This document shows, piece by piece, positions 21,338 through 51,251 of a DNA stretch of 64,000 nt (its first letter is position 1; each line of letters opens with the position of its first letter). This DNA is from Nocardiopsis rhodophaea. Lineage in GTDB: Bacteria > Actinomycetota > Actinomycetes > Streptosporangiales > Streptosporangiaceae. Under the pieces are notes generated by a model. It saw nothing but the letters and a program-made list of their open reading frames with translations. It did not search any database and had not been told where the DNA came from. The stretch lies in the NCBI RefSeq assembly GCF_039530945.1, contig NZ_BAAAPC010000008.1, positions 123,234-187,233 of the forward strand, given 5' to 3'. A program made the position numbers and the translations under genes.

Positions 21338-21982
21338 ATGAATACAACGCCCTCCGCGACAGATCGCGCATACGAGTACACGAAGGACGCCATCCTCACC
21401 CGCCGCTACGGGGGCGGCGACCTGGTCAGCGAGGGGGACATCGCGGCCGGGGTCGGGGTCTCCCGCACGCCGGTCCGCGAGGCGCTGCTCCGGCTCCAGG
21501 CCGAAGGGCTGGTCCGGCTCTTCCCCAAGCGTGGAGCGCTCATCGTCCCCGTCTCCCAGCAGGAGATCGACGACGTCATCGAGACCCGCCGCCTCGTCGA
21601 GGGCTTCACGGCCGAATGCGCGGCGGGCCTGGGCGAGGCCGAGCGCACCGCGCTGGTGGACGCCCTCGGCTCCTACCTCGACGTGATGCGCGCGCACGTC
21701 GCCACCGACAAGCGCGCCTTCGTCGTCGCCGACCGCGAATTCCACCGCGCCATCATCCGGGCCGCCGGGAACCAGGTCCTCATCGACCTCTATGAGACCC
21801 TGCGCGACCGGCAGCTGCGCATGATGGAGGAGGGCGCGCGCACCGTCGAGCGGCTGCGCGCCAACATCGACGAGCACGCCGCCATCATGGACGCCCTCCG
21901 CGACGGCGACGCCGCGGCGGCGCGTGAGGCCGTCCGGGTGCACATGGACGCCGCCGGGGCGATGCTCGGGGCGCGCCGGTGA
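21338..21982 (+). CDS. GntR-family (FadR/FCD subfamily) transcriptional regulator
   Basis: N-terminal GntR wHTH (…SEGDIAAGVGVSRTPVREALLRLQAEGLVR…) and a C-terminal FCD-like helical domain. Confidence 0.7.
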   Translation: MNTTPSATDRAYEYTKDAILTRRYGGGDLVSEGDIAAGVGVSRTPVREALLRLQAEGLVRLFPKRGALIVPVSQQEIDDVIETRRLVEGFTAECAAGLGEAERTALVDALGSYLDVMRAHVATDKRAFVVADREFHRAIIRAAGNQVLIDLYETLRDRQLRMMEEGARTVERLRANIDEHAAIMDALRDGDAAAAREAVRVHMDAAGAMLGARR

Positions 21983-23298
21983 GCGTCGACGCCCGGGAAC
22001 GGGCGTGCGACCAGTCATCCTCTGACGGGACATCCGCTGAGCTGATCGGCGGCGGCCACGGTGCGGGGCGGGCCGGGACCGAACCTCCGGGAGGGGCCCG
22101 CGCCTGGCTGGTGTGGGGCGTCGCCGTCGGCGTCTACTTCCTGGCGATGTTCCACCGCAACGGGCTGGGCGTGGCGGCGCTCCAGGCCCAGGAGCGCTTC
22201 CACGTCGGTCCGGCGCTGCTGTCGGTGCTCCCCGTCGTGCAGCTGATCGTCTACGTGGCGCTCCAGGTGCCCACCGGAGTGCTGGCCGACCGGCTCGGGC
22301 CGCGAAAGACGCTGCTGATCGGTCTGGCGGCGATGGCGGCGGGCGTCGCCATGTTCGCCCTCGCTCCGAGTATCGAGGTGGCGATCACCGCCCGGGTGCT
22401 CATCGGCCTCGGTGACGCGGTGACCTTCCTCAACGTCATCCGGCTCGGTGCGCTGTGGTTCCCTCGCCGGCAGTACGCCCTGGTCAGCGCGTTCACCGGG
22501 ACGATCGGCGGCCTCGGCCAGGTGGCCAGCGTGGTCCCCCTCTCGGCGGCGCTTCACCAGCTCGGCTGGACGCCCGCCTTCCTGGCCACGGGCGCGGTGA
22601 CCGCCGTGATGATGCTGCTGGTGCTCCTGGTGGTCCGCGACCGCCCCGAGGGCGTGCGCGCGTCGGACCGTCGGCAGGCGCCTGTCTCGGTTGGGGCGAG
22701 CCTCAGGGAGGCGCTGCGGGCGCGCGGTCCGCGGGTGGGCATGGCCAGCCATGTGGTGCTGCAGGCGCCTTACACGATGCTCGCGGCGCTGTGGGGCTAC
22801 CCGTTCCTGGTCGAGGGGCTGGGCATGGCCCCGGCGGCCGCCGGACTCGTGCTGACCGTCCTGGGGGTCGCCACGCTGTGGGTCTCGCCGGTGCTGGGCG
22901 CGTTCGTCGGCCGCTTCCCCCGGATCCGCGCCGTGTTCGGCGTGGGGCTGGGGACGGTGCTCAGCGTGGGCTGGATCGCGATTGTCGCGTGGCCGGGCGG
23001 ACCGCCCGTTCCGCTGGTCATCGCGCACTTCACCATCGCGTGCGCGGCCATGGCGATGGCGGCGCCGATCTCCTTCGACTTCGCCCGCGACGGCATCCCC
23101 GCGCAGCGCACGGGCGTGGCGTCGAGCCTGGTGAACATGTCCGGGTTCACCGCCGTGGTGGTGACCGTGCTGCTCGCCGGGATGATCCTGGAGTCCGGTG
23201 CCGGTTTCCAGGCGGCGTTCGTGCCGGTCACCGTGACCACGGTGCTCGGTACCGCCGTGTTCGCCGCACTGCTCCGGCGCTACCCGCGCTCGGCCTGA
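21979..23298 (+). CDS. MFS transporter
   Basis: The GTG start overlaps the GntR stop by 4 nt. 12 predicted TM helices and the MFS motif GVLADRLGPRKTLLIG. Confidence 0.65.
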   Translation: MSVDARERACDQSSSDGTSAELIGGGHGAGRAGTEPPGGARAWLVWGVAVGVYFLAMFHRNGLGVAALQAQERFHVGPALLSVLPVVQLIVYVALQVPTGVLADRLGPRKTLLIGLAAMAAGVAMFALAPSIEVAITARVLIGLGDAVTFLNVIRLGALWFPRRQYALVSAFTGTIGGLGQVASVVPLSAALHQLGWTPAFLATGAVTAVMMLLVLLVVRDRPEGVRASDRRQAPVSVGASLREALRARGPRVGMASHVVLQAPYTMLAALWGYPFLVEGLGMAPAAAGLVLTVLGVATLWVSPVLGAFVGRFPRIRAVFGVGLGTVLSVGWIAIVAWPGGPPVPLVIAHFTIACAAMAMAAPISFDFARDGIPAQRTGVASSLVNMSGFTAVVVTVLLAGMILESGAGFQAAFVPVTVTTVLGTAVFAALLRRYPRSA

Positions 23299-23694: not shown

Positions 23695-25518
23695 TTAGAA
23701 CGCCGATTCGGGGACGTCCATGAGGTCGAGCGTGGTGTTCTCGGCGATCTTGCGCTCGGCGGACAGGCGCGGCAGGACCTGGTCAGCGAAGAAGCGCGCG
23801 GCGGCGATCTTGCCGGTGTAGAAGTCCTTGTCGCTCCCCTCGGCCCCGTCGAGCTTCTCCAGCGCGATCGCGGCCTGGCGGAGCAGCAGCCAGCCCAGCA
23901 CCACGTCGCCGAAGCCCATGAGGAGGCGGGTGGCGTTGAGGCCGACCTTGTAGAGCTCGCGGGTCTCCTCGGCGGAGCGCATGGCGTCGCCGATCATGAT
24001 CTCGACGATCTTCTCGACGTCCGCGGCGGCCTCGGCGAGGAGGGCGCGCTCCTCCTTGAGTCGGCCGTTGCCGTTGTCGCTGCCGGCGAAGGCCTTGATC
24101 TCGCCCATCAGCGCGCCGAACGCCTGACCGTTGTTCTTCACGATCTTGCGGAAGAAGAAGTCCTGCGCCTGGATGGCCGTGGTGCCCTCGTAGAGGGTGT
24201 CGATCTTGGCGTCGCGGATGTACTGCTCGATCGGGTACTCCTGCAGGTACCCGGAGCCGCCCAGGGTCTGCAGCGACTCGGAGAGCAGGGCGTAGGACCG
24301 CTCGGAGCCCACACCCTTGACGATGGGCAGCAGCAGGTCGTTGTAGGCCTCCAGCTGGCTGTGGTCCTCGCCCGTGTGCTGGGCGATCTGGATCGCGTCC
24401 TGCTGGGTGGCGGTGTACATGACCAGCGCGCGCAGTGCCTCGGTGTAGGCCTTCTGCGTCATCAGGCTGCGCCGCACGTCGGGGTGATGGGTGATGGTCA
24501 CCCGGGGCGCGGTCTTGTCCGTCATCTGGGTGAGGTCGGCGCCCTGCTTGCGCTCCTTGGCGTACTCAAGGGCGTTGAGGTAGCCGGTGGACAGCGTGGC
24601 GATCGCCTTCGTGCCGACCATCATCCGGGCGTACTCGATAATGAGGAACATCTGCCGGATGCCGTCGTGCTTGTCGCCGACGAGGTAGCCGACGGCGGGG
24701 TGCTTGGCGCCGAAGGTCAGCTCACAGGTGGTGGACGCCTTCAGGCCCATCTTGTGCTCGACGTTGGTCACGTAGGCGCCGTTGCGCTCGCCGAGCGAGC
24801 CGTCCTCGTTGACCAGGAACTTCGGCACGAGGAAGAGGGAGAGGCCCTTCGTCCCGGGCTGGGCGCCCTCGGGTCGCGCCAAGACCAGGTGGAAGATGTT
24901 CTCGGTCATGTCCTGCTCGGCCGAGGTGATGAAGCGCTTCACACCCTCGATGTGCCAGGTGCCGTCGCCCTGGTCGGTGGCCTTGGTGCGGCCGGCGCCG
25001 ACGTCCGACCCGGCGTCGGGCTCGGTGAGCACCATGGTGGCGCCCCAGCCGCGCTCAATGGCCTGCAGGGCGAACTTCTTCTGCGCTTCGTTGCCCTCCT
25101 GCCAGAGGATGTTGGCGAAGCCCGGACCGGCCGAGTACATGTGGACGGAGGGGTTAGCGCCCAACACGAGCTCGGAGGCGGCCCACACGAGGGAGCGGGG
25201 CGCGCCGAGGCCGCCGAGCTCCTGGGGGAGGTCCAGGTTGTACCAACCGGCGTCCATGTAGGCCTGGTAGGACTTCTTCAGGCTCTCGGGGATGGCGACC
25301 GTGCTGGTCTTGGGGTCGAATACCGGGGGGTTGCGGTCGGCGTCCTCGAACGACTCGGCCACGACGCCGGTGGCGAGCCGGTTGACCTCGTCAAGGATGG
25401 TGCGGGCCGTGTCCTCGTCCAGCTCCTCGAACGGGCCTTTCCCCAGCACGTCCTGGCGCTTGAATACCTCAAAGAGGTTGAACTCGAGGTCACGGAGGTT
25501 GCTCTTGTAATGCGTCAT
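23695..25518 (-). CDS. Long-type acyl-CoA dehydrogenase (FadE5-like, about 608 aa)
   Basis: Translation from ATG at 25518 is [37 protein letters not shown]…, with ACAD N-terminal, middle and C-terminal domain signatures (…[20 protein letters not shown]…). Confidence 0.75.
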
Positions 25519-25542: not shown

Positions 25543-25578
25543 CCGCTGTCGGCGCAGTCCTCTACTGGCTAGTAACAA
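25543..25578. promoter_or_regulatory. 36-bp palindromic operator-like site (TACTGGCTAGTAACA-N6-TGTTACTACCCAGTA) upstream of the acyl-CoA dehydrogenase gene
   Basis: Near-perfect inverted repeat (14/15 arm match) 25-60 nt upstream of the ACAD start. Half-site TACTSGCTAGTAACA recurs at 42857. Confidence 0.45.
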
Positions 25579-25670
25579 TGACATGTTACTACCCAGTAGT
25601 AGTGCTTTGCCAGGGGCTGTCCCAACTGTCGGAATCGCCGCTCCCGCAGGGGCTTGCGCCGGATACGCCA

Positions 25671-25752: not shown

Positions 25753-28700
25753 CTAGCGGTGGAACCGCTCCGCCGCCTTCTCGATAGCGGCCTCCACCGC
25801 CCCGACACGGTCGGCCAGCAGGCCGACGGCGCCCACCGCCCGCGTCATCGGGTCGTCCTCGGCTCCGCCCAGGGCCCGCCCGCGCTGGAAGCCCGCCTTC
25901 ACCTCGGCCCAGCGGCGCTCCTGCTCGGGCGTCATCGTCCCGCGCAGCTCGGCCAGCTTGAGCAGGTTGGCCTCCGCACCCGAGGTCAGTGTCTGCGCCT
26001 CCCCCAGGTAGTGGTCGTCGATCACCGCCTCCAGCTCGGCGTCGTTCATCACCGGAACGATCTTCTCCGCCAGCCGGTTCATGTTCCGGTACGACCCCTG
26101 CAGGCGGAACGGCGGCTCGGTGCGCGACTCCTCGGCCTGGGCCGCCGAGGCGATGTAGGCCTGGTTGTTGGCCAGCACCACCTGCCGCGCCCGCAGCAGC
26201 TTGCGCAGCACCGACAGGATCTGCTCCAGTTCCACCGGCGAGTAGGGGTGGGCCAGCTGGTCGGCCCGCACTGACTCGTCGCCCCCGGCCAGCCGCACCA
26301 GCAGCTCGATGTCGCCCCGGTCCCGCGTGGACAGCGGTGCCAGGGTCGGGTTCGAGGTCAGCGCGTTCTCGATGTAGCTCAGCGCGAACAGCTCGTCCTT
26401 GCCCGACATCACATCGCCGAGGTTGTACACATCCGCGCGGTTGGCCAGCATGTCCGGGACGCGGAACCGCTGCCCCTGCTCGGTGTAGGGGTTGCCGGAC
26501 ATGCACACCGCGAACCGCTTGCCGCGCATGTCGTAGGTGCGGGTCTGCCCGCCCCAGACGCCCTCCATCCGCCGCTGACCATCGCACAGCGAGATGAACT
26601 TCTGCAGCAGCTCGGGGTTGGTGTGCTGGATGTCGTCCAGGTAGAGCAGCACGTTGTTGCCCATCTCCAGGGCGAACGAGATCTTCTCGACCTCCTGGCG
26701 GGCGGTGGCGTCCGGCGCGTCGTCCGGGTCCAGCGAGGTGACCGCGTGCCCCAGCGCCGGCCCGTTGACCTTGACGAACACCAGGCCCAGCCGACTCGCC
26801 ACGTACTCCATCAGCGTGGTCTTGCCGTAGCCCGGAGGGGAGATGAGCAGGAGCAGACCGCTCTGGTCGGTGCGCTTGCCATCGCCCGCGGCGCCCAGCT
26901 GCTTGGCGAGGTTGTCGCCGATGAGCGGCAGGTAGGCCTCGTCCAGCAGCCGGTTGCGCACGAACGTGCTCATCACCTTGGGCCTGTACTCGTCCAGCCG
27001 CAGGCGCCGCCGCTCGTGCTCGATCAGTTCGTTGCGCTGCCGCTGGTAGTCCCAGAAGGCGGGCACCTCCTCGACGCGGAAACGGCGGGTGCGGGCCAGC
27101 AGCTCGTCGAGCCGGAACGACAGGGTCCGATCGGCGACGCGCGGGTGTGTCCCGAGCAGCCCCGTCACGGTCGCCGACATCGCCGCCGCGGAGTCGTACC
27201 GGGGCAGGTCCGCGCCGCACAGCTCGACGGCGACCGCTTCGGCCAGGTCGGCCTCGACGGTGGCGGCGTCGGCCTTCCCGTCGGCCGTGGACGCGGTGGC
27301 GGTCGCGGACGCGGCGGCGTTCGCCTCTGCATACGCCCGCAGCCAGGCCGTGACCAGCTGGTGCCGGGCGGCGAGGTCGTCGCCCAGCGCGCGCAGGTCG
27401 TCCTCGAACGACGGACCGGACGCGGAACGCGCGCCGCCGAGCGCGCGGCGGAACCGGTCCAGCAGCGTGCGGGCGCCCGCGCTGGTGACGAATCCGTCGG
27501 GCGCCGACGCCACCTCCTCGAACAGGTACTCCCCGGCGAGCTCCGCTACCCCGGCGTCGATGTCCAGGTGGGAGGAGGCGAGGAAGGACGCGATGGCCTC
27601 CGCCAGCTCGGCGCGCAGCCCCGCGATCGCCGCGGAATCGCGCACCCCGAAGACCTCGCGGGCGCGCGCCAGCGACGACGCCCGCGTCCGCCACGCCGAC
27701 CGCTGCTCCTTCCCGGCGCCGAACGCCCAGAACAGCTGGGCGGCCGACCGCGCCGCGGACGGGTAGCGCAGCAGCCCGGCGTCGGTGCGCAGGCGCAGCA
27801 GGACATCGAGGATCCGGGCGGCGTCGTGGTCGTGGACGCCCCGCTCGTAGCCCTCGTTGTAGCGGGACTCCGCCACCCGGCGGACCAGGGCGAGGAGGCC
27901 GTGCGCGGCGCCGTCGCCCTCGCCCTCGCCCTCGCTCGCGGCCGCGGCCGCGGCGGCGCGCAGCGTGTCGAGGCTCAGCCCCTCCGCGCCCGCCTCGGCC
28001 ATGGCCAGGATGGACGTGGCCAGGTACTCCGCCCGGTACACCTCAGCGGACTCCGAGACGACCAGCCGGTCCCAGAACCGGCGCGTCGCCTGGAACCCCG
28101 CGTCGAGCACGGGTGCGCGGAAGTCGGTCCCGGTGATGCTGACCGCCATGCGGCCGTCGTGCGGGACGAGGGTGAGGTCGATCGGCTGGGTGTTCACCGC
28201 GAAGCGGTGCCGCCCCAGGCGCAGGCTCTCGCCGCCGCCGTCGAACAGGTCGAGCCGGTCGCGCAGGGCCCGCCCGGCCTCCTGGCGGGCCGCCTTGACC
28301 CGGCCCTCCAGCTCCTCGGCGCGGACCTGGTCGCCCAGGCCGCGCAGCTGCTCGATGGTGGAGCGCAGCCGCGCCACCATCGGGTCGGAGGCGAAGTAGG
28401 TGTTGACATCGTCGAGCGAGTCCAGCGAGACGACCCGGCGCTGGACGCTGCCCAGGATCCGGTCGCCGGACTCCACCAGCCGGTCGGCCCGCCGGGCGCG
28501 CTCGTCCAGCAGCGCCTGCTTGCGGGTGGAGAACGCCTCGTAGACGTCCTCGCGCTTGGCGCTCAGCTCGTCGAGGAAGTCGTCGAACTCGCCGAAGCGC
28601 GACTCCAGGTTCTCCAACTGCAGCATGAGCCGCCCCAGCTGCTCGTCGCAGCGGTCCGGGGTGTCGGCGGCGGCCAGCGCTCCCGTGATGGCCTGCCCGA

Positions 28701-30987
28701 GCAGGGCGAACTCGGCCGCGAACTCGGCCCGGCCCTCGGTCTCCAGCAGCTGTTTGCGGCGCGCTTCCAGGGTGGCGCGGGCCCGGTTGATGCCGCCGAG
28801 GACCTCGCCGACGCGTTCCAGGATGCGAGTCCGCGCCTGGGTGTCGGCGATGTCGAGCGTGCTGACGACCTCGGTGACGACCTCCAGCCCCTCGCTCTGC
28901 GCGGCGAGCCGCTCGCCCACGGGCGCCGCGTCGGCCACCGTGGCGATGGACTCGGCCTCGGCGACCAGGCGGTCGACCTCCTCGTGGTACCCCGCGAAGG
29001 CGTTGTCGCCCGCCAGGAACGCCACGGCGCGACGCCCGACGGAGGTGAGCTCGTCCCTCAGGTCGCCGTCGAGCGTGTCGATGCGGCCGGTGTCGATGTA
29101 GCGCATCTCGCGCAGCGTCACCAGGTGGCCCTGGGAGCGGCGCAGCTCGGTGAGGAGCTCCACCCACGCGTCGGCGGACCGGGGCGTCTCGCCGCGCGAC
29201 CGCCGGAGCAGGGAGGCGATGGCGCGCGCCGCCTCGTCCAGTGCCGCGGCGGCCTGGTCGGTGAGCGCCCGCACCTTCTCGAACTCGTCGAGCACCTGCT
29301 CGGCGGTGGCGCGCACCTGCGACACCGGGTCGTGCAGCCCGCCCAGCTCGGTGTCGCCGAGCCAGTGGTAGTGGTCGAACACGCTGCGGCAGGTGGCGAT
29401 GAGCGCTTCGAACACCTCGGTCGACGGCGACATCTCGGCGACCATCCGGGTCACCGACAGGCAGTCGGAGATGCCGCGCACCAGCTCGGCGTTGCCGATC
29501 CGCTCCAGCGGGCCGGTGCCCACCGGCTGCGCGGCGGCATACACGTCGGAGACGTAGGGGGTCTGCCACACCTGCATGGGGTGCACCCGGGTCGGCTCGC
29601 CGCCGCCGTCGCGGAACACCACGAGTGTGCCGTCGTCGAACAGCGAGTAGCCGTGGCAGACGATCGGGGTGGCGACTTCCTTGCGGATCACGTTGTAGGG
29701 CAGCAGGAGGGTGCGCCCGTCGTGACGGGAGTGGAACCCGTAGAGCACGTCCTCGCCGTTGGGAGAGCGGATGACGCGCTCGAACTCCAGGCCGGTGACG
29801 TCGGTGTCGAAGGTCTTGGCCGTGCCGGTGGCCAGGTAGTAGCCGCCGGGGAAGATGATCCCCTGGTCCTCGGGGAGGCGCTGGCAGGCCTGCCCGATGC
29901 CGTCGAGCCGGAGGACGTCCTTGGTGCGGGTGTTGAAGACGAGGTGGCGCCACTCGGCCTCGTTGTAGGGGAGGATCCGCAGCAGGATGAGCGCGCCGAC
30001 CCGCGCGTAGTGCACCTGGGCGTCGGCCAGGCTCTGCAGCGGCTCGGCCACCGGCTCGCTGTAGATGCCCTGCCCGGACTCGGTGTTGTTCTCGATCTTG
30101 ATGGTCAGGTCGCCGCCGACCGTCTCGACGAAGAGCTGGTCGAGGATGGAGATGTGCGGGTGGCGCCCCAGGACGTGGTCGTCGCGGGTGGTCTCGGTCC
30201 ACGCGAAGTCGTGCGAGGGCGGGAAGACGTGGTCGCGCTCGCCCCGGGCGTCGAGGTAGGAGACCTCGCCGCGGGAGCTGACGCTCCAGCGCAGCACCTT
30301 GACGTCCGCGGTGCGCGGGCCGGTCTGGAAGACGGCGAGGAGCTTGCCCTCCACGTGCCGCAGCTGGAGCAGCCGGGTCTCGCGGTAGTAGCGGTACAGC
30401 TCGCCGAAGTCGCGCTCGAAGCGCGGGTCGCGCAGCAGTTCCGGCAGGGTGTCGTCCGCGGCGGGGTCGAACCCGAACGCGGTGGTGTCGCCCGCGCGCT
30501 CAAACCGGTGCAGCGCGAACACGTCGTCGACCCGGGTCTCGGTCTTCAGCCCGATGAAGACGTTGTAGCCGAACAGCATGTGCCCGCCGACGGACACGAT
30601 GTCGCGCGGCACGCAGTTGTGCTCGGTGCGGATGCGCTCGGTGCCGAGCAGCTCCAGCTCACTGCCGCCGAACACCTCCAGGCGGCGGGTGTTGAGCTCT
30701 TCGGCCCGCCGGGCGAGTTCGCCCGCGTGCTCGGCGAGTCGGGAGCGCAGCACCTCGTAGGTGCCGGCGTCGAGGCCGTCGGGGGCCTCGGGCGCGGGCG
30801 GGTGGGTCGTGGGGGCGTCGTTCGCGTCAGTGCCGTCTGCGCGCTCACGCTCCTCACTTGCTGCACCGCCGACGCTGCGGGGCCTTCGGCCGTTCGGCGT
30901 CGACGCTTCCGCTCGTTCGGTCGCGTTCGCTTCGGGGGCGGAGGAGCCCGCCGTGGCGGCGGACTCCTCGTTCACCACATCGGTCAC
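25753..30987 (-). CDS. Giant (1744 aa) protein with N-terminal beta-rich region, long helical/coiled-coil middle and C-terminal MoxR/AAA_5-like P-loop ATPase
   Basis: Continuous 5.2-kb ORF with high GC3. Walker A LLLISPPGYGKTTLMEYV is encoded around 26.83 kb. Walker B-like NVLLYLDDIQHTNPELL and an AAA_5-type sensor FAVCMSGNPY. GTG start 8 nt after the flotillin stop. Confidence 0.7.
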   Translation of the reverse strand: MTDVVNEESAATAGSSAPEANATERAEASTPNGRRPRSVGGAASEERERADGTDANDAPTTHPPAPEAPDGLDAGTYEVLRSRLAEHAGELARRAEELNTRRLEVFGGSELELLGTERIRTEHNCVPRDIVSVGGHMLFGYNVFIGLKTETRVDDVFALHRFERAGDTTAFGFDPAADDTLPELLRDPRFERDFGELYRYYRETRLLQLRHVEGKLLAVFQTGPRTADVKVLRWSVSSRGEVSYLDARGERDHVFPPSHDFAWTETTRDDHVLGRHPHISILDQLFVETVGGDLTIKIENNTESGQGIYSEPVAEPLQSLADAQVHYARVGALILLRILPYNEAEWRHLVFNTRTKDVLRLDGIGQACQRLPEDQGIIFPGGYYLATGTAKTFDTDVTGLEFERVIRSPNGEDVLYGFHSRHDGRTLLLPYNVIRKEVATPIVCHGYSLFDDGTLVVFRDGGGEPTRVHPMQVWQTPYVSDVYAAAQPVGTGPLERIGNAELVRGISDCLSVTRMVAEMSPSTEVFEALIATCRSVFDHYHWLGDTELGGLHDPVSQVRATAEQVLDEFEKVRALTDQAAAALDEAARAIASLLRRSRGETPRSADAWVELLTELRRSQGHLVTLREMRYIDTGRIDTLDGDLRDELTSVGRRAVAFLAGDNAFAGYHEEVDRLVAEAESIATVADAAPVGERLAAQSEGLEVVTEVVSTLDIADTQARTRILERVGEVLGGINRARATLEARRKQLLETEGRAEFAAEFALLGQAITGALAAADTPDRCDEQLGRLMLQLENLESRFGEFDDFLDELSAKREDVYEAFSTRKQALLDERARRADRLVESGDRILGSVQRRVVSLDSLDDVNTYFASDPMVARLRSTIEQLRGLGDQVRAEELEGRVKAARQEAGRALRDRLDLFDGGGESLRLGRHRFAVNTQPIDLTLVPHDGRMAVSITGTDFRAPVLDAGFQATRRFWDRLVVSESAEVYRAEYLATSILAMAEAGAEGLSLDTLRAAAAAAASEGEGEGDGAAHGLLALVRRVAESRYNEGYERGVHDHDAARILDVLLRLRTDAGLLRYPSAARSAAQLFWAFGAGKEQRSAWRTRASSLARAREVFGVRDSAAIAGLRAELAEAIASFLASSHLDIDAGVAELAGEYLFEEVASAPDGFVTSAGARTLLDRFRRALGGARSASGPSFEDDLRALGDDLAARHQLVTAWLRAYAEANAAASATATASTADGKADAATVEADLAEAVAVELCGADLPRYDSAAAMSATVTGLLGTHPRVADRTLSFRLDELLARTRRFRVEEVPAFWDYQRQRNELIEHERRRLRLDEYRPKVMSTFVRNRLLDEAYLPLIGDNLAKQLGAAGDGKRTDQSGLLLLISPPGYGKTTLMEYVASRLGLVFVKVNGPALGHAVTSLDPDDAPDATARQEVEKISFALEMGNNVLLYLDDIQHTNPELLQKFISLCDGQRRMEGVWGGQTRTYDMRGKRFAVCMSGNPYTEQGQRFRVPDMLANRADVYNLGDVMSGKDELFALSYIENALTSNPTLAPLSTRDRGDIELLVRLAGGDESVRADQLAHPYSPVELEQILSVLRKLLRARQVVLANNQAYIASAAQAEESRTEPPFRLQGSYRNMNRLAEKIVPVMNDAELEAVIDDHYLGEAQTLTSGAEANLLKLAELRGTMTPEQERRWAEVKAGFQRGRALGGAEDDPMTRAVGAVGLLADRVGAVEAAIEKAAERFHR

Positions 30988-30995
30988 CGCTTACC

Positions 30996-33005
30996 TCACT
31001 GCTTCGTGCCGTTGAGGGCGGCCAGGGGCGCCTCGGCGACGCCGAGGTCCCGCGCGGTGCCCAGCAGTTCGCGCAGCCGGCCCTCGTCGGGGCCGCCCGC
31101 CTGGATGAGCTTCATGAGCAGCGCGGAGATGGTGAGGTTCTTGACGTCCTCGGTGCCGACGGAGCCGAGCAGCCGGGACATGTCCTTGCTGAAGTCGGAC
31201 GAACCGTCGAGCCACGCGCCGCCCAGCGACTGCGCCACGTCGGAGTTCTGCACGAACCCGTCGACGGCCTTGCCCATGCCGATGGAGTTGACCATCCGAT
31301 CGAAGAACATGCCGTCGCCGCCGACGATGTTGATGTCGGCCTTCTCCAGGCCGGTGGCCAGCACCGTGGCCTGGGCTTCGGCGACCTGGCGGTGCACGTC
31401 GATCCCGGCCATGCGGACCTCCTTCTCGGCCTCCAGCCGCAGGCGGTACTCCTCGTGCTCGCGGCTGACCTGGTCAAGGGCGGCCATGGCGCCGGCCTTG
31501 TCGTTCAGGCCCTCGGCCTCGGCCTTGAGCTTCTCGCGGACGGCCTCGGCCTCGACGGCGGCCTTCTCCTTCATCACGGCGGCCTCGGCGCGACCGGTCT
31601 TCTCGATCACCTCGGCGTCCTGCTCGCGGACCTGGACCTCGGCCAGGCCGGCCGCTGCTGCCTCGGCCTGGACGCCTTCGGCGAGCTTGACCTTGGCGCG
31701 GGTGTCGAGCTCGGCCGCCTGCTCGCGGGCCTCGGCCAGGGTCAGCTCCTCGGCGGCCCTGTGCTTGGCGGCGGCCTCAGCGGCCTCGGCCGCCTTGATG
31801 TCCTTGACCAGGTTCTCCTGCGCCTCGGCCTCGGCGTGGATGATGATGGCCTGGCGCTCGCGCTCGGCCTCCTCGACCGCGCGCAGCTTCTTGATGTTCT
31901 CCTCCTGCTCGGCCACGGTCTTCTCGACCGCGATCCGCTCCCGGATAACCTCGGCGACCTCGCGCTTCTCGCCTTCGAGCTCCTTGTCCTTGGCGATGCG
32001 GGACAGCTCGGTTTCGCGCTCGCGGCCGATGACCTCCAGCATCCGGTCCTTCTCGATGCGCTCGGACTCGATGGAGATGACGCGCTCGCGGTTCTTCTCC
32101 GCGACGGCGATCTCCCGCTGCTGGTTCTGGTGCTGGACGCCCAGCTGCTCGTCGGTGCGCAGGTGCGCCTCCTGCGCCTTGAGCCGCTCCTCGGCCTGGA
32201 CCTTGGCGGTCTCGGCCTCCTCCCGGGCCTTGATGCTCTCGATCTCGCGCTTGGCCTTGGCCTCGGCTTCCTCGCGGCGGCGCTCCAGCTCGGCCAGGGT
32301 CTCCGCGGACTCGGTGTCCTGGCGCTGGATCTCCTTCTGCCGCTCGTTCTCCAGCTCGTTGGTGCGCTTGTGCTGCTCGGCGGTGAGGGCGGTGATCTTG
32401 CTGATGCCCTGCGCGTCGAGGATGTTGTCGCGGTCGAGGCGGTGCAGCGGCGTCTGCTCCAGGAAGTCGATCGCCGCTTTCTCGATGTAGTAGCCGTTCA
32501 GCTCGGTGCCGATGAGCGCGATGATCTGGTCGCGGAACTCATCGCGCTTGGTGTAGAGGTCCACGAAGTCGAACTGCTTGCCGACGGTCTTGACGGCCTC
32601 TGAGAACGTCGCGTTGAACAGCTCCTGCAGGGTCTCCTGGTTGCTGGCGCGCTCCGTGCCGATGGACTGGGCGACCTTCAGGACGTCCTGCGGGGTGGGG
32701 TTGATCCCGACATAGAAGGTGATGCTGATGTCCGCGCGGATGTTGTCGCGGCAGATCAGCCCTTCATTGCCGTCGCGCTCGATGAGCATCGTCTTCTGCG
32801 AGATGTCCATGACCTCGGCCTTGTGCAGGACGGGGAGGACAACCGCTCCGGTGAAGGTCACGTCGACCTTCTTCACCTTGGAGATGATCAGCGCCCGGCC
32901 CTGTTCGACCTTGCGGAACAGCCGGGCGATGGTGAAGAGGAGGCCGAGGACGATGAGGAGGGCGGCGGCGAAGAGGACGCCGACGCCGGCGGTGATGGTT
33001 TCCAT
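30996..33005 (-). CDS. Flotillin-like SPFH/band-7 protein with very long Glu/Ala/Lys/Arg-rich coiled coil (669 aa)
   Basis: N-terminal TM anchor (METITAGVGVLFAAALLIVLGLLFTIARLF). The SPFH core has YqiK/FloT-like motifs (…VLPVLHKAEVMDISQKTMLIERDGNEGLICRDNIRADISITFYVGINP…), then a heptad-rich helical region. Confidence 0.75.
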   Translation of the reverse strand: METITAGVGVLFAAALLIVLGLLFTIARLFRKVEQGRALIISKVKKVDVTFTGAVVLPVLHKAEVMDISQKTMLIERDGNEGLICRDNIRADISITFYVGINPTPQDVLKVAQSIGTERASNQETLQELFNATFSEAVKTVGKQFDFVDLYTKRDEFRDQIIALIGTELNGYYIEKAAIDFLEQTPLHRLDRDNILDAQGISKITALTAEQHKRTNELENERQKEIQRQDTESAETLAELERRREEAEAKAKREIESIKAREEAETAKVQAEERLKAQEAHLRTDEQLGVQHQNQQREIAVAEKNRERVISIESERIEKDRMLEVIGRERETELSRIAKDKELEGEKREVAEVIRERIAVEKTVAEQEENIKKLRAVEEAERERQAIIIHAEAEAQENLVKDIKAAEAAEAAAKHRAAEELTLAEAREQAAELDTRAKVKLAEGVQAEAAAAGLAEVQVREQDAEVIEKTGRAEAAVMKEKAAVEAEAVREKLKAEAEGLNDKAGAMAALDQVSREHEEYRLRLEAEKEVRMAGIDVHRQVAEAQATVLATGLEKADINIVGGDGMFFDRMVNSIGMGKAVDGFVQNSDVAQSLGGAWLDGSSDFSKDMSRLLGSVGTEDVKNLTISALLMKLIQAGGPDEGRLRELLGTARDLGVAEAPLAALNGTKQ

Positions 33006-42438: not shown

Positions 42439-42459
42439 CTTGAGTCTGCTCGGCTCAAG
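42439..42459. promoter_or_regulatory. HspR-associated inverted repeat (HAIR) operator upstream of dnaK
   Basis: CTTGAGT-ctgctcg-GCTCAAG about 55 nt upstream of the dnaK start. Matches the CTTGAGT-N7-ACTCAAG consensus at 13/14 positions. Confidence 0.55.
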
Positions 42460-42856: not shown

Positions 42857-42874
42857 GGGTATTACTCGCTAGTA
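42857..42874. promoter_or_regulatory. Second copy of the TACTSGCTAGTAACA palindromic operator half-site motif, upstream of the Fe-S reductase gene
   Basis: ATTACTCGCTAGTAACAT is 14/15 identical to the arm of the 25543 palindrome and is itself dyad-symmetric (TTACTcGCtAGTAA). Lies about 65 nt upstream of ATG at 42940. Confidence 0.4.
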
Positions 42875-42939
42875 ACATTTGATCGACCTCCGGTGTGTGG
42901 CGCACCGGAGCACGACAGCAGGATGGGAGGCCGCGGGCG

Positions 42940-45129
42940 ATGCTCTACATGATCCTGGGGATCATCACGACCGCCTTCGCCGTGGTCGGGCTGGCCGTGT
43001 TCGCCATTGGCATCCGCCATATGGTGCGCACCGTGGGCATCGGCCGGCCGATCGAAGGCGAGCGCAAGGGACCCTTTGGTCAGCGACTGACGACCACGCT
43101 GATCGAGACCCTCGGGCACACGCGCATGCTCAAGTGGCGCTGGATCGGCGTCGCGCACTGGTTCGTGATGGTCTCGTTCCCGCTTCTGGCGTTCACGGTC
43201 GCCGAGGCACATGGCGAGGTGTGGAACCCGCAGTTCCACCTCCCGATCATCTACGACTGGACCATCTACGGCCTGGCCGTGGAGGCCATCGCCGCGCTCA
43301 GCCTCGCCGGGATCGTCGGCCTGGCGATCTACCGGCAGGTGAAGGGGCCCCGGACGCTCGGCCGCGCGTCCCGCTTCGAGAACTCCCGGCACTGGCAGGC
43401 CTACTACGTCGAGGCCTACATCGTCGGCCTGCTGGTCGCCATCTTCGTGATCCGCGGGTTCAAGGTCGCGCTCGGCGACTTCCCCTTCCCCGTGTGGGCC
43501 ACCCCGGTCTCCCACGCCGTGGGCGCCGTGCTGCCGCCGAGCGAGGCCGGGCTCGCGCTCGTGGCCGCGTTCAAGCTGATCATCTCCTGGATGTTCTTCA
43601 TGGTGCTGGGCTGGATCCTCACCATGGGTATCGGCTGGCACCGGTTCACCGCGCCGGTCAACATCTACTTCAAGCGCTTCACCAACGGCGACGTCGCGCT
43701 CGGCCCGGCCAAGCAGATGATGGACAAGACCGGGGAGAAGCCGCTCGACTTCGAGGAGGCCGACCCCGACGAGGACCCGTTCGGCGTCGGCAAGATCGAG
43801 GACTTCACCTGGAAGGGCCTGCTCGACTTCACCACCTGCACGGAGTGCGGACGGTGCCAGTCGCAGTGCCCCGCGTGGAACACCGGCAAGCCGCTCTCGC
43901 CCAAGAAGCTGGTCATGGACCTGCGGGAGCACGCCTACGCCAAGGCCCCCTACCTGCTGCAGGGCATCACAGAGGAGACCCTCGCCGAGAAGCAGAAGGA
44001 GGACGAGAGCCACGCCGGCGTCGACGTGCTCTCGCTGCTCGGAGCTCCGCTCGTGGGGACCGAGGAGGAGGGCGGCATCATCCACCCCGACGTCCTGTGG
44101 TCCTGCACCAACTGCGGCGCGTGCGTCGAGCAGTGCCCCGTCGACATCGAGCACGTCGACCACATCCTCGACATGCGCCGCTACCAGGTGATGATCGAGT
44201 CGAACTTCCCCTCCGAGGCGAACACCCTGCTCAAGAACCTGGAGAACAAGGGCAACCCGTGGGGGATGGCCGAGGACAAGCGCCTCGACTGGATCTCCGA
44301 GCTCGACTTCGAGGTCCCCGTCGTCGAGGACAAGCTCCCCGAGGGCACCGAGTACCTGTTCTGGGTGGGGTGCGCCGGCGCCCTGGAGGACCGAGCGAAG
44401 AAGACCACCAAGGCCATCGCCGAACTGCTGCACATGGCCGGCGTCAAGTTCGCGGTGCTCGGCGGTATGGAGGCGTGCACCGGTGACCCGGCGCGCCGCC
44501 TGGGTATGGAGTTCATCTTCCAGATGCTCGCCCAGCAGAACGTGGAGACGCTGAACGAGGTCGGCGCCACCAAGATCGTGGCCAGCTGCCCGCACTGCTT
44601 CAACACGCTCGGCAACGAGTACCCGCAGCTCGGCGGTGAATACGACGTCATCCACCACAGCCAGCTGCTGGCCAAGCTGGTGGAGGACGGCCGACTCACG
44701 CCGGTCCAACCGATCGAGGAGAACATCACCTACCACGACCCCTGCTTCCTGGGCCGCCACAACAAGGTCTACACGCCGCCCCGCGACATCATGGCGCAGG
44801 TCCCCGGCATCCAGACCAAGGAGATGCACCGGCACAAGGAGCGCGGGTTCTGCTGTGGCGCGGGTGGTGCCCGGATGTGGATGGAGGAGCGGATCGGCAA
44901 GCGCGTCAACACCGAGCGGGTGGACGAGGCGCTGACGACCAACCCCGACACCGTGTCCACCGCGTGCCCGTTCTGCCAGGTCATGCTGGGCGACGCGATC
45001 AACGAGAAGAAGTCCAAGGGCGAGGCCAAGGAGACCCTGGAGGTCGTGGACGTCTCGCAGCTCCTGCTCCGGTCGGTGAAGGGCGACACGCCCACCAGCG
45101 ACGCCGAACCGGAGAAGGAGAACGCCTAG
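42940..45129 (+). CDS. Membrane-anchored (Fe-S)-binding oxidoreductase (heterodisulfide-reductase-related, Rv0338c-like)
   Basis: GGGAGG RBS precedes ATG at 42940. N-terminal 5-6 TM helices, then two CxxCxxCxxxCP ferredoxin-like clusters (CTECGRCQSQCP, CTNCGACVEQCP) and CCG-type Cys-rich domains (…ASCPHCFNTLG…, …GFCCGAGG…, …STACPFCQ…). Confidence 0.7.
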   Translation: MLYMILGIITTAFAVVGLAVFAIGIRHMVRTVGIGRPIEGERKGPFGQRLTTTLIETLGHTRMLKWRWIGVAHWFVMVSFPLLAFTVAEAHGEVWNPQFHLPIIYDWTIYGLAVEAIAALSLAGIVGLAIYRQVKGPRTLGRASRFENSRHWQAYYVEAYIVGLLVAIFVIRGFKVALGDFPFPVWATPVSHAVGAVLPPSEAGLALVAAFKLIISWMFFMVLGWILTMGIGWHRFTAPVNIYFKRFTNGDVALGPAKQMMDKTGEKPLDFEEADPDEDPFGVGKIEDFTWKGLLDFTTCTECGRCQSQCPAWNTGKPLSPKKLVMDLREHAYAKAPYLLQGITEETLAEKQKEDESHAGVDVLSLLGAPLVGTEEEGGIIHPDVLWSCTNCGACVEQCPVDIEHVDHILDMRRYQVMIESNFPSEANTLLKNLENKGNPWGMAEDKRLDWISELDFEVPVVEDKLPEGTEYLFWVGCAGALEDRAKKTTKAIAELLHMAGVKFAVLGGMEACTGDPARRLGMEFIFQMLAQQNVETLNEVGATKIVASCPHCFNTLGNEYPQLGGEYDVIHHSQLLAKLVEDGRLTPVQPIEENITYHDPCFLGRHNKVYTPPRDIMAQVPGIQTKEMHRHKERGFCCGAGGARMWMEERIGKRVNTERVDEALTTNPDTVSTACPFCQVMLGDAINEKKSKGEAKETLEVVDVSQLLLRSVKGDTPTSDAEPEKENA

Positions 45130-50654: not shown

Positions 50655-51251
50655 ATGGATATGGAACGGCCGGACGACGCCGGTGCGTGCGCGGGCCGGA
50701 TGCGTGACCGAGCGGCCACACGCCAGCGCATCCTCGACAGCGCGCGCGAGCTGTTCACCAGCGAGGGGTACGAGCAGGTGTCCTCGCGGCGGATCGCGGC
50801 GCACGCGGGCGTCAACGTCGCACTCATCAACCGCTACTTCGGGGCCAAGCGCGGACTGCTGGCCGAGGTCATCGCGGAGGACGCGGTGTTCCCCGGCATT
50901 TTCGAGGGCGATCCCGCCACCCTGCCCCAGCGGCTGGCCGAGCATCTGACCGGGCGCGTGCTCGGTCCCGGGACGCCGCTGCAGCGGGCGCTGGAGCACT
51001 CGACGGGCGACCCCGACCTCCGCTCGGTCTACGAGGAGCGGCTGAAAAGCGCCCTGATCGAGCCGCTCGCCGCGCATCTCGGCGGGCCGGACGCCCGAGC
51101 GCGGGCGTCGCTGGTCGCGGGTGTGGTGCTCGGCATGGGCACGCTCAGGCGTGCCGAAGGCGCCACCGCGCTCCTCGAACTCGCCCCCGACGACCTGGCC
51201 GAGCGGCTGACCCGAATCATCGAGCAGTGCCTGGAGCGCTCCGCGGCCTGA
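50655..51251 (+). CDS. TetR-family transcriptional regulator
   Basis: N-terminal TetR HTH (RQRILDSARELFTSEGYEQVSSRRIAAHAGVNVALINRYFGAKRGL), divergent from the MFS pump. Confidence 0.65.
   Translation: MDMERPDDAGACAGRMRDRAATRQRILDSARELFTSEGYEQVSSRRIAAHAGVNVALINRYFGAKRGLLAEVIAEDAVFPGIFEGDPATLPQRLAEHLTGRVLGPGTPLQRALEHSTGDPDLRSVYEERLKSALIEPLAAHLGGPDARARASLVAGVVLGMGTLRRAEGATALLELAPDDLAERLTRIIEQCLERSAA

Follow-up and report, generated by a model that had tools for sequence, protein, structure and literature searches.

The locus raises the question of whether one operator, read by one regulator, governs two separate redox genes of a Nocardiopsaceae genome. The window, i.e. the whole stretch of DNA analysed (64 kb, 68% G+C), contains a gene for a long acyl-CoA dehydrogenase (ACAD) and a gene for a membrane Fe-S reductase, and the original prediction placed the same operator-like palindrome upstream of both. 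This element belongs to the TAC-N6-GTA fatty-acid motif known from mycobacteria and is most probably the operator of an FdmR-clade repressor. Both the motif (McGuire et al., 2012, PMC3388012) and the regulator, FdmR, have already been described in mycobacteria.

The two genes and the element upstream of them

The two genes are assigned as follows:

23695..25518, minus strand: fadE5 ortholog, broad-specificity acyl-CoA dehydrogenase, 607 aa (Pfam and alignment to FadE5 structures)
42940..45129, plus strand: etfD ortholog, membrane Fe-S/CCG oxidoreductase, 729 aa (Pfam and match to 9ojn_A)

The ACAD carries the Pfam domains Acyl-CoA_dh_N, Acyl-CoA_dh_M and Acyl-CoA_dh_1, together with the extra domain Acyl-CoA_dh_C (PF12806). 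Its alignment with the FadE5 structures 6kpt and 6kse spans the full length (858 bits, residues 1-607 versus 1-611), and it is 83-89% identical to the ACADs of Nocardiopsis species. The Fe-S protein comprises a Pfam 4Fe-4S dicluster domain and two CCG stretches, and its residues 4-715 match residues 10-747 of the M. smegmatis EtfD cryo-EM chain 9ojn_A with 748 bits. It is 95% identical to the N. mwathae protein and is devoid of the C-terminal extension of about 300 residues present in the 1042-aa M. smegmatis protein. EtfD is a membrane oxidoreductase that oxidises ETF and is essential for β-oxidation in M. tuberculosis (PMC8593149). The proposal that the Fe-S reductase is the electron sink of the ACAD fits this published biochemistry and is supported by the assignment as an EtfD ortholog.

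The 36 letters first quoted for the ACAD side are exact, but they were placed at 25543..25578; TACTGGCTAGTAACA-atgaca-TGTTACTACCCAGTA occupies positions 25563..25598, a shift of +20. The sequence ATTACTCGCTAGTAACAT upstream of the Fe-S gene was likewise quoted correctly but misplaced, lying at 42861..42878 instead of 42857..42874 (a shift of +4). Because the ATG at 25518 is fixed by the end-to-end FadE5 alignment, the nearest edge of the fadE5 element is 44 nt from the start codon, and the earlier estimate of about 30 nt has to be given up. The distance of about 65 nt to the Fe-S gene stands, as 65 nt separate the end of the ATTACTCGCTAGTAACAT site from the ATG at 42940.

An alignment of 80 FadE5 loci, with one genome per species, reveals that the conserved unit is not a 36-nt palindrome. 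It is a 12-bp dyad, TACY-N4-RGTA, which is often extended to gtTACY-N4-RGTAac. The reading as an operator survives, but the supposed 36-nt unit consists of two adjacent 12-bp dyads, and the near-perfect palindrome is a local by-product of this adjacency. What had been taken for a half-site upstream of the Fe-S gene is in fact one full 12-bp unit, and it is identical in N. mwathae. The ACAT tail common to the 15-mers of the original prediction corresponds to TAACAT, a -10-like hexamer lying partly inside the box. Scored with a weight matrix built from orthologous promoters (308 symmetrised training sites), the boxes of the window are:

25587..25598: distal fadE5 operator box, reading TACTGGGTAGTA on the minus (gene) strand, 15.9 bits
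25563..25574: proximal fadE5 operator box, TACTGGCTAGTA, 19.0 bits, start 24 bp from the distal box
42863..42874: single etfD operator box, TACTCGCTAGTA, 18.7 bits
17593..17604: candidate third operator, TACCGGTTGGTA, 17.6 bits, the only further weight-matrix match in the window

The recurrence of the 15-mer had been judged unlikely to arise by chance. It is real, because the 64-kb window contains four matches with at most three mismatches, as opposed to 0.14 expected, and none of 100 shuffles reaches four. The TAC and GTA arm positions are invariant across the 308 training sites, and all three window sites fit them. At a threshold of at least 14 bits, the weight matrix recovers from the 64 kb only the fadE5 and etfD boxes and the site at 17593..17604, with 0.3 matches expected by shuffling.

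The specificity of the matrix is equally apparent in the roughly 1.8 Mb of fetched DNA, where 197 matches of at least 15 bits were found, nearly all of them at fadE5 or etfD promoters. Shuffled sequence yields about 6 such matches per 0.78 Mb (about 0.008 per kb). Matches of this strength lie almost exclusively directly upstream of etfD in the metagenomic EtfD loci, and just three occur away from the fadE5 promoter in the FadE5 loci. Two Nocardiopsis genomes carry a box upstream of an MFS transporter gene located downstream of fadE5 (L005:11780 and L007:10764). This gene is homologous to 21979..23298 of the window, where a GntR gene is situated in front of it and no box is present.

The third site has a gene of its own within reach:

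17014..17580, minus strand: predicted membrane protein, 188 aa (ORF translation; no Pfam family)

On the minus strand, the box, 12 nt upstream of this ORF, is followed by a -10-like TACGTT, 8 nt and the ATG. Given this placement of TACGTT, the transcript of the 188-aa ORF would be leaderless. The ORF may tentatively be regarded as a third member of the regulon. The fetched fadE5 and etfD loci contain no homologs of the ORFs flanking the third site.

Immediately upstream of fadE5, and transcribed in the same direction, lie two further genes: one (25753..30987) encodes a 1744-aa DUF3686/DUF7902/AAA ATPase, and the partner of this giant ATPase (30996..33005) comprises 669 aa and has no Pfam match. 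Of the fetched loci, only that of Streptomonospora wellingtoniae (L002) shows synteny for this pair.

Transcription of etfD diverges from that of dnaK-grpE-dnaJ-hspR-clpB. A HAIR-type inverted repeat, CTTGAGTCTGCTCGGCTCAAG, at 42439..42459 precedes dnaK by about 55 nt and has one mismatch to CTTGAGT-N7-ACTCAAG; hspR is encoded downstream in the dnaK operon. With this repeat and the etfD box, the dnaK-etfD intergenic region therefore has an independent operator at either end. A GC-rich stem-loop of 10 bp (42888..42911) is present in the predicted 5' leader of etfD; it is identical in N. mwathae and has an ordinary folding energy (z = −0.59).

Occurrence of the box and promoter layout

At least one box is present in all 83 FadE5 promoters considered, and 71 of them have two, with a start-to-start spacing of mostly 24-26 bp. 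This set covers Nocardiopsis, Streptomonospora, Actinomadura, Nonomuraea, Streptomyces, Saccharothrix, Lentzea, Nocardioides and Mycobacterium. The two boxes of the M. smegmatis fadE5 promoter are 26 bp apart, and the fadE5 promoter of a slow-growing Mycobacterium (L166) has one box, gtTACTGGTGGGTAac.

The EtfD set consists of 81 promoters, of which four come from named genomes, 76 from metagenomes and one from the window; none of the fetched EtfD loci is mycobacterial (best identity 59.6%). A single box precedes 47 of these 81 EtfD orthologs; the other 34 promoters have none. The claim of a common operator at both genes is thus borne out as far as orthologous promoters can tell, the box occurring upstream of FadE5 and EtfD orthologs across the class Actinomycetes.

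Most Streptomyces fadE5 promoters (L033-L079) display one more conserved element, GTCACAGAT, about 45-60 nt upstream of the distal box and beyond the −35 region, which may represent a further regulatory site or belong to the end of a divergent gene.

A strict scan for the E. coli-type sigma-70 consensus found nothing at the fadE5 or etfD promoter, and because of this the following elements were deduced from conservation:

25583..25588, minus strand: -10-like hexamer TAACAT of fadE5, sharing the final two bases of the distal box
25607..25612, minus strand: -35-like hexamer TGGCAA of fadE5, 18 nt upstream of the -10-like hexamer
42873..42878, plus strand: -10-like hexamer TAACAT of etfD, overlapping the 3' end of the etfD box

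Box positions 11-16 read TAnnnT in 69 of the 83 FadE5 promoters, mostly as TAGCAT (51) or TAACAT (10), and in 36 of the 47 box-bearing EtfD promoters. A TTGC- or TGGCA-type element is found about 17-18 nt upstream of the FadE5 -10-like hexamer, reading cTGGCa or cTTGGCAaa at the −35-like position of Nocardiopsis loci and GGTTGC in Streptomyces. A scan for terminators predicted none at the fadE5 or etfD promoter.

At both promoters, box and -10-like hexamer overlap, and the proximal fadE5 box probably covers the transcription start region. One dyad on the -10 hexamer and a second over the probable start represent the usual layout of repression by a dimeric helix-turn-helix protein, and the expectation of a repressor, already expressed in the original prediction, accords well with it. 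That the fadE5 and etfD elements are transcription-factor operators can be considered very likely.

The regulatory model that we infer, with respect to binding protein, effector and direction of regulation, is as follows. A dimer of an FdmR-clade TetR repressor, encoded by a gene outside the window, would occupy each 12-bp dyad. At fadE5, two dimers would be bound, one covering the -10 hexamer and the other, about 24 bp further downstream, the start site; at etfD, a lone dimer would cover the -10 hexamer. The bound repressor would exclude RNA polymerase from both promoters. When fatty acids become available, long-chain acyl-CoA would bind the repressor and release it from the DNA. This release would jointly switch on the first dehydrogenase of β-oxidation and the membrane enzyme that re-oxidises its carrier, ETF.

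The candidate regulator and its competitors

The boxes are quite likely the operators of a TetR repressor of the FdmR (Rv0238) clade that senses long-chain acyl-CoA. In two publications, FdmR, i.e. Rv0238, is presented as a TetR repressor of fatty-acid degradation and modification that responds to long-chain acyl-CoA, and as the key regulator of fadE5 (PMC9262360, PMC12403877). The literature accessible for this work provides no operator sequence for FdmR or FasR. Dong et al. (2021, PNAS 118:e2019305118) are said to have investigated FdmR as Rv0238 and as its M. marinum ortholog. Recognition of TAC-N6-GTA by FdmR is proposed here because the boxes co-localise with FdmR-clade genes and fadE5 is a reported target. 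Rv3249c was also considered as FdmR and was rejected, as it regulates mmpL genes.

A search of representative proteins delineates a compact clade of 31 representatives at E ≤ 1e-30. FdmR-clade genes are found beside box-bearing lipid genes in four loci, and in two of these, boxes occur in the promoter of the regulator gene itself. The fadE5 promoters of the mycobacterial loci L165, L166 and L167 bear boxes; in L166 and L167, a TetR gene at the Rv0238 position lies within the fadE5 cluster, and a weaker box is located between fadA2 and fabG4. In the non-mycobacterial loci L170 and L171, paired boxes are situated in the FdmR-clade gene's own divergent promoter, opposite an SCP2 gene (SCP2-ACAD in L170). 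Locus L171 has, in addition, a perfect 18.5-bit box in the adjacent divergent promoter of a fabG4-like gene and a thiolase gene, at a position as in the mycobacterial loci. No box was found near the FdmR-clade genes of L168, L169 (Nocardiopsis) and L172. Directly upstream of the FdmR-like gene, a box is absent from L166, L167, L168, L169 and L172, so that autoregulation is suggested only by L170 and L171.

The latter two loci stem from uncultured actinobacteria, and in each a purine-biosynthesis cluster (purA/purD … purB/purS/purQ/purL) surrounds the FdmR-clade TetR gene and the lipid genes linked to it (L170:9480..10597, L171:6736..11398). Both loci have SCP2 among these lipid genes; L170 adds an ACAD, and L171 adds a MaoC dehydratase, a fabG4-like reductase and a thiolase.

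A clade member also exists in Nocardiopsis ganjiahuensis, a species other than that of the window. This protein, P0411 (WP_017586652.1), has a TetR_C_46 domain and matches the FdmR-like protein with 116 bits and 38% identity, and the 6o6p chain with 70 bits. Its gene is not linked to lipid genes.

The window itself contains no FdmR-clade gene, in agreement with the earlier suggestion that the regulator may be encoded elsewhere. The only TetR gene of the window (50655..51251) was rejected as a candidate: it encodes a TetR_C_16 protein that matches the FdmR-like protein over the helix-turn-helix only, and it has no box. An MFS efflux gene (48749..about 50370) is transcribed divergently from this TetR_N/TetR_C_16 gene.

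A related regulator has to be weighed against the FdmR clade. The fas gene is a target of FasR (Rv3208), and the chains of PDB entries 6o6n, 6o6o and 6o6p are presumably FasR. The boxes might accordingly be read by a FasR (Rv3208-type) paralog that activates fas, or both paralogs might compete for TAC-N6-GTA. Among PDB structures, the FdmR-like protein finds its next-best match in the chains 6o6n and 6o6p, with which it has in common the DNA-reading segment RLPR…SKPxLY. Three TAC-N6-GTA sites are located upstream of fas, Rv2524c (McGuire et al., 2012, PMC3388012). The common DNA-reading segment and the presence of fas among the 2012 motif targets are the reasons why a FasR-type paralog remains a rival. 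However, the targets in the window are catabolic, and a box over the -10 hexamer fits repression and not activation of the FasR type. The literature names FdmR as the regulator of fadE5. Moreover, the TetR proteins encoded next to boxes (L166, L167, L170 and L171) belong to the FdmR clade, with 39-100% identity to the FdmR-like protein, and TetR_C_46 is listed for three of these four. P0411, too, scores higher against the FdmR-like protein than against the presumed FasR chain (116 versus 70 bits). A FasR-type reader of the boxes is, all told, unlikely.

The original prediction had left the choice between a TetR- and a GntR-type regulator. The first part is retained, with the FdmR clade as the best candidate, and the second probably has to be dropped. 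The regulator gene closest to fadE5, at a distance of 1.7 kb, is a GntR/FCD gene of the FadR subfamily (21338..21982), and its group includes E. coli FadR. However, this gene keeps synteny with fadE5 in no more than 3-4 of the 80 loci, all of which have boxes. It forms an operon with the MFS transporter gene and has no box upstream, and in L005 and L007 the related MFS gene carries a box without any GntR gene. Its role as the cognate regulator is very improbable.

That the 36-nt palindrome acts as an RNA or DNA hairpin (a terminator, attenuator or processing site) and not as paired protein sites is hardly credible: the window copy lies between two co-directional genes and folds into a 15-bp stem (−37 kcal/mol, z = −4.8), but box-box complementarity in 71 two-box promoters averages 2.35 of 6 central positions versus 2.43 after random re-pairing, the Streptomyces boxes are unable to pair, the etfD promoter has just one box, the stem is not followed by a T-tract, the terminator scan is empty, no Rfam family reaches its threshold, and the transcript would start inside the palindrome if the -10 hexamer is as deduced.

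Significance and comparison with known systems

With operators of an FdmR-clade repressor as the preferred reading, the present analysis adds three points to what was known: the class-wide conservation of the box at fadE5 and etfD; a box architecture that overlaps the -10 hexamer and comprises two copies at fadE5 and a single copy at etfD; and co-localisation data that relate the 2012 motif to the FdmR clade. It thereby helps to connect a motif that had no regulator with a regulator clade and does not reveal a new mechanism. The link between FadE5 and EtfD is made at the level of their promoters, and EtfD has been proposed as a drug target in M. tuberculosis. In the accessible EtfD literature, the regulation of etfD is linked to IdeR and peroxide only. 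The regulatory logic appears conserved from Mycobacterium through Streptomyces to Nocardiopsis. The 12-bp pattern and its weight matrix can be used to predict the fatty-acid catabolic regulon in any actinobacterial genome, which would be useful for engineering precursor supply in antibiotic producers. A wider proposal combines two parts: that an acyl-CoA sensor co-regulates, as a single unit across the class, FadE5 as the entry dehydrogenase and EtfD as the point where β-oxidation electrons leave for the respiratory chain, with a graded architecture of two operators versus one that is perhaps hitherto unreported, and that the 188-aa protein is a new co-regulated component of this pathway. As a whole, this combination is possible but doubtful.

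Several known regulators of lipid metabolism invite comparison. KstR and KstR2, with the operators TnnAACnnGTTnnA and AnCAAGnnCTTGnT, as well as XNR_0706 and SAV7471, resemble the system discussed here in being TetR-family regulators of lipid catabolism with palindromic operators. The boxes were predicted to differ from those of KstR and KstR2, and indeed neither type occurs at the fadE5 or etfD promoter; the window has no KstR-type match and two KstR2-type matches with one mismatch each, at 16214 and 16832, away from both promoters. The operators of the Streptomyces β-oxidation regulators XNR_0706 (TGCGGGGCGC-N35-GCCCCGCGCT) and SAV7471 (GAGAAC-N3-CGTTCTC) are unrelated to the boxes and absent from both promoters, and these two proteins were rejected as regulators.

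FasR senses long-chain acyl-CoA and, in mycobacteria, activates the biosynthetic operon fas-acpS from upstream sites. It is a relative of FdmR with a similar DNA-reading helix, and the TAC-N6-GTA sites of the fas promoter (PMC3388012) add to the likeness. However, FasR acts upstream of the core promoter, whereas the sites described here overlap the -10-like hexamers of catabolic genes.

FdmR, as portrayed in the literature, agrees with the system proposed here in the control of fadE5, the TetR family, the repressor layout and an effector logic suited to switching on β-oxidation. The co-localisation of FdmR-clade genes with boxes and the full-length FadE5 ortholog encoded in the window are in line with this. 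The difference lies in the Nocardiopsis clade member, whose identity to the FdmR-like protein is only 38% and whose gene has no linkage to lipid genes.

The closest counterpart of the element itself is the TAC-N6-GTA motif predicted upstream of mycobacterial fatty-acid genes by McGuire et al., 2012 (BMC Genomics 13:120, PMC3388012), which occurs in clusters of 2-3 sites and was linked to palmitate-induced genes without a regulator being named. As in the window sites, invariant TAC and GTA arms enclose six less-conserved bases. The copies are clustered in both cases, the fadE5 promoter of the window having two boxes 24 bp apart and etfD only one, and both motifs lie upstream of genes of fatty-acid metabolism, here the FadE5 and EtfD orthologs. 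The targets named in 2012 were desA3 (Rv3229c), Rv3230c and fas (Rv2524c), whereas those described here are fadE5 and etfD. Furthermore, the 2012 motif was confined to Mycobacterium and close relatives, whereas the box is now found in Nocardiopsaceae and at least five further actinobacterial lineages, and the present work adds to the 2012 description where the box lies with respect to the -10 hexamer.
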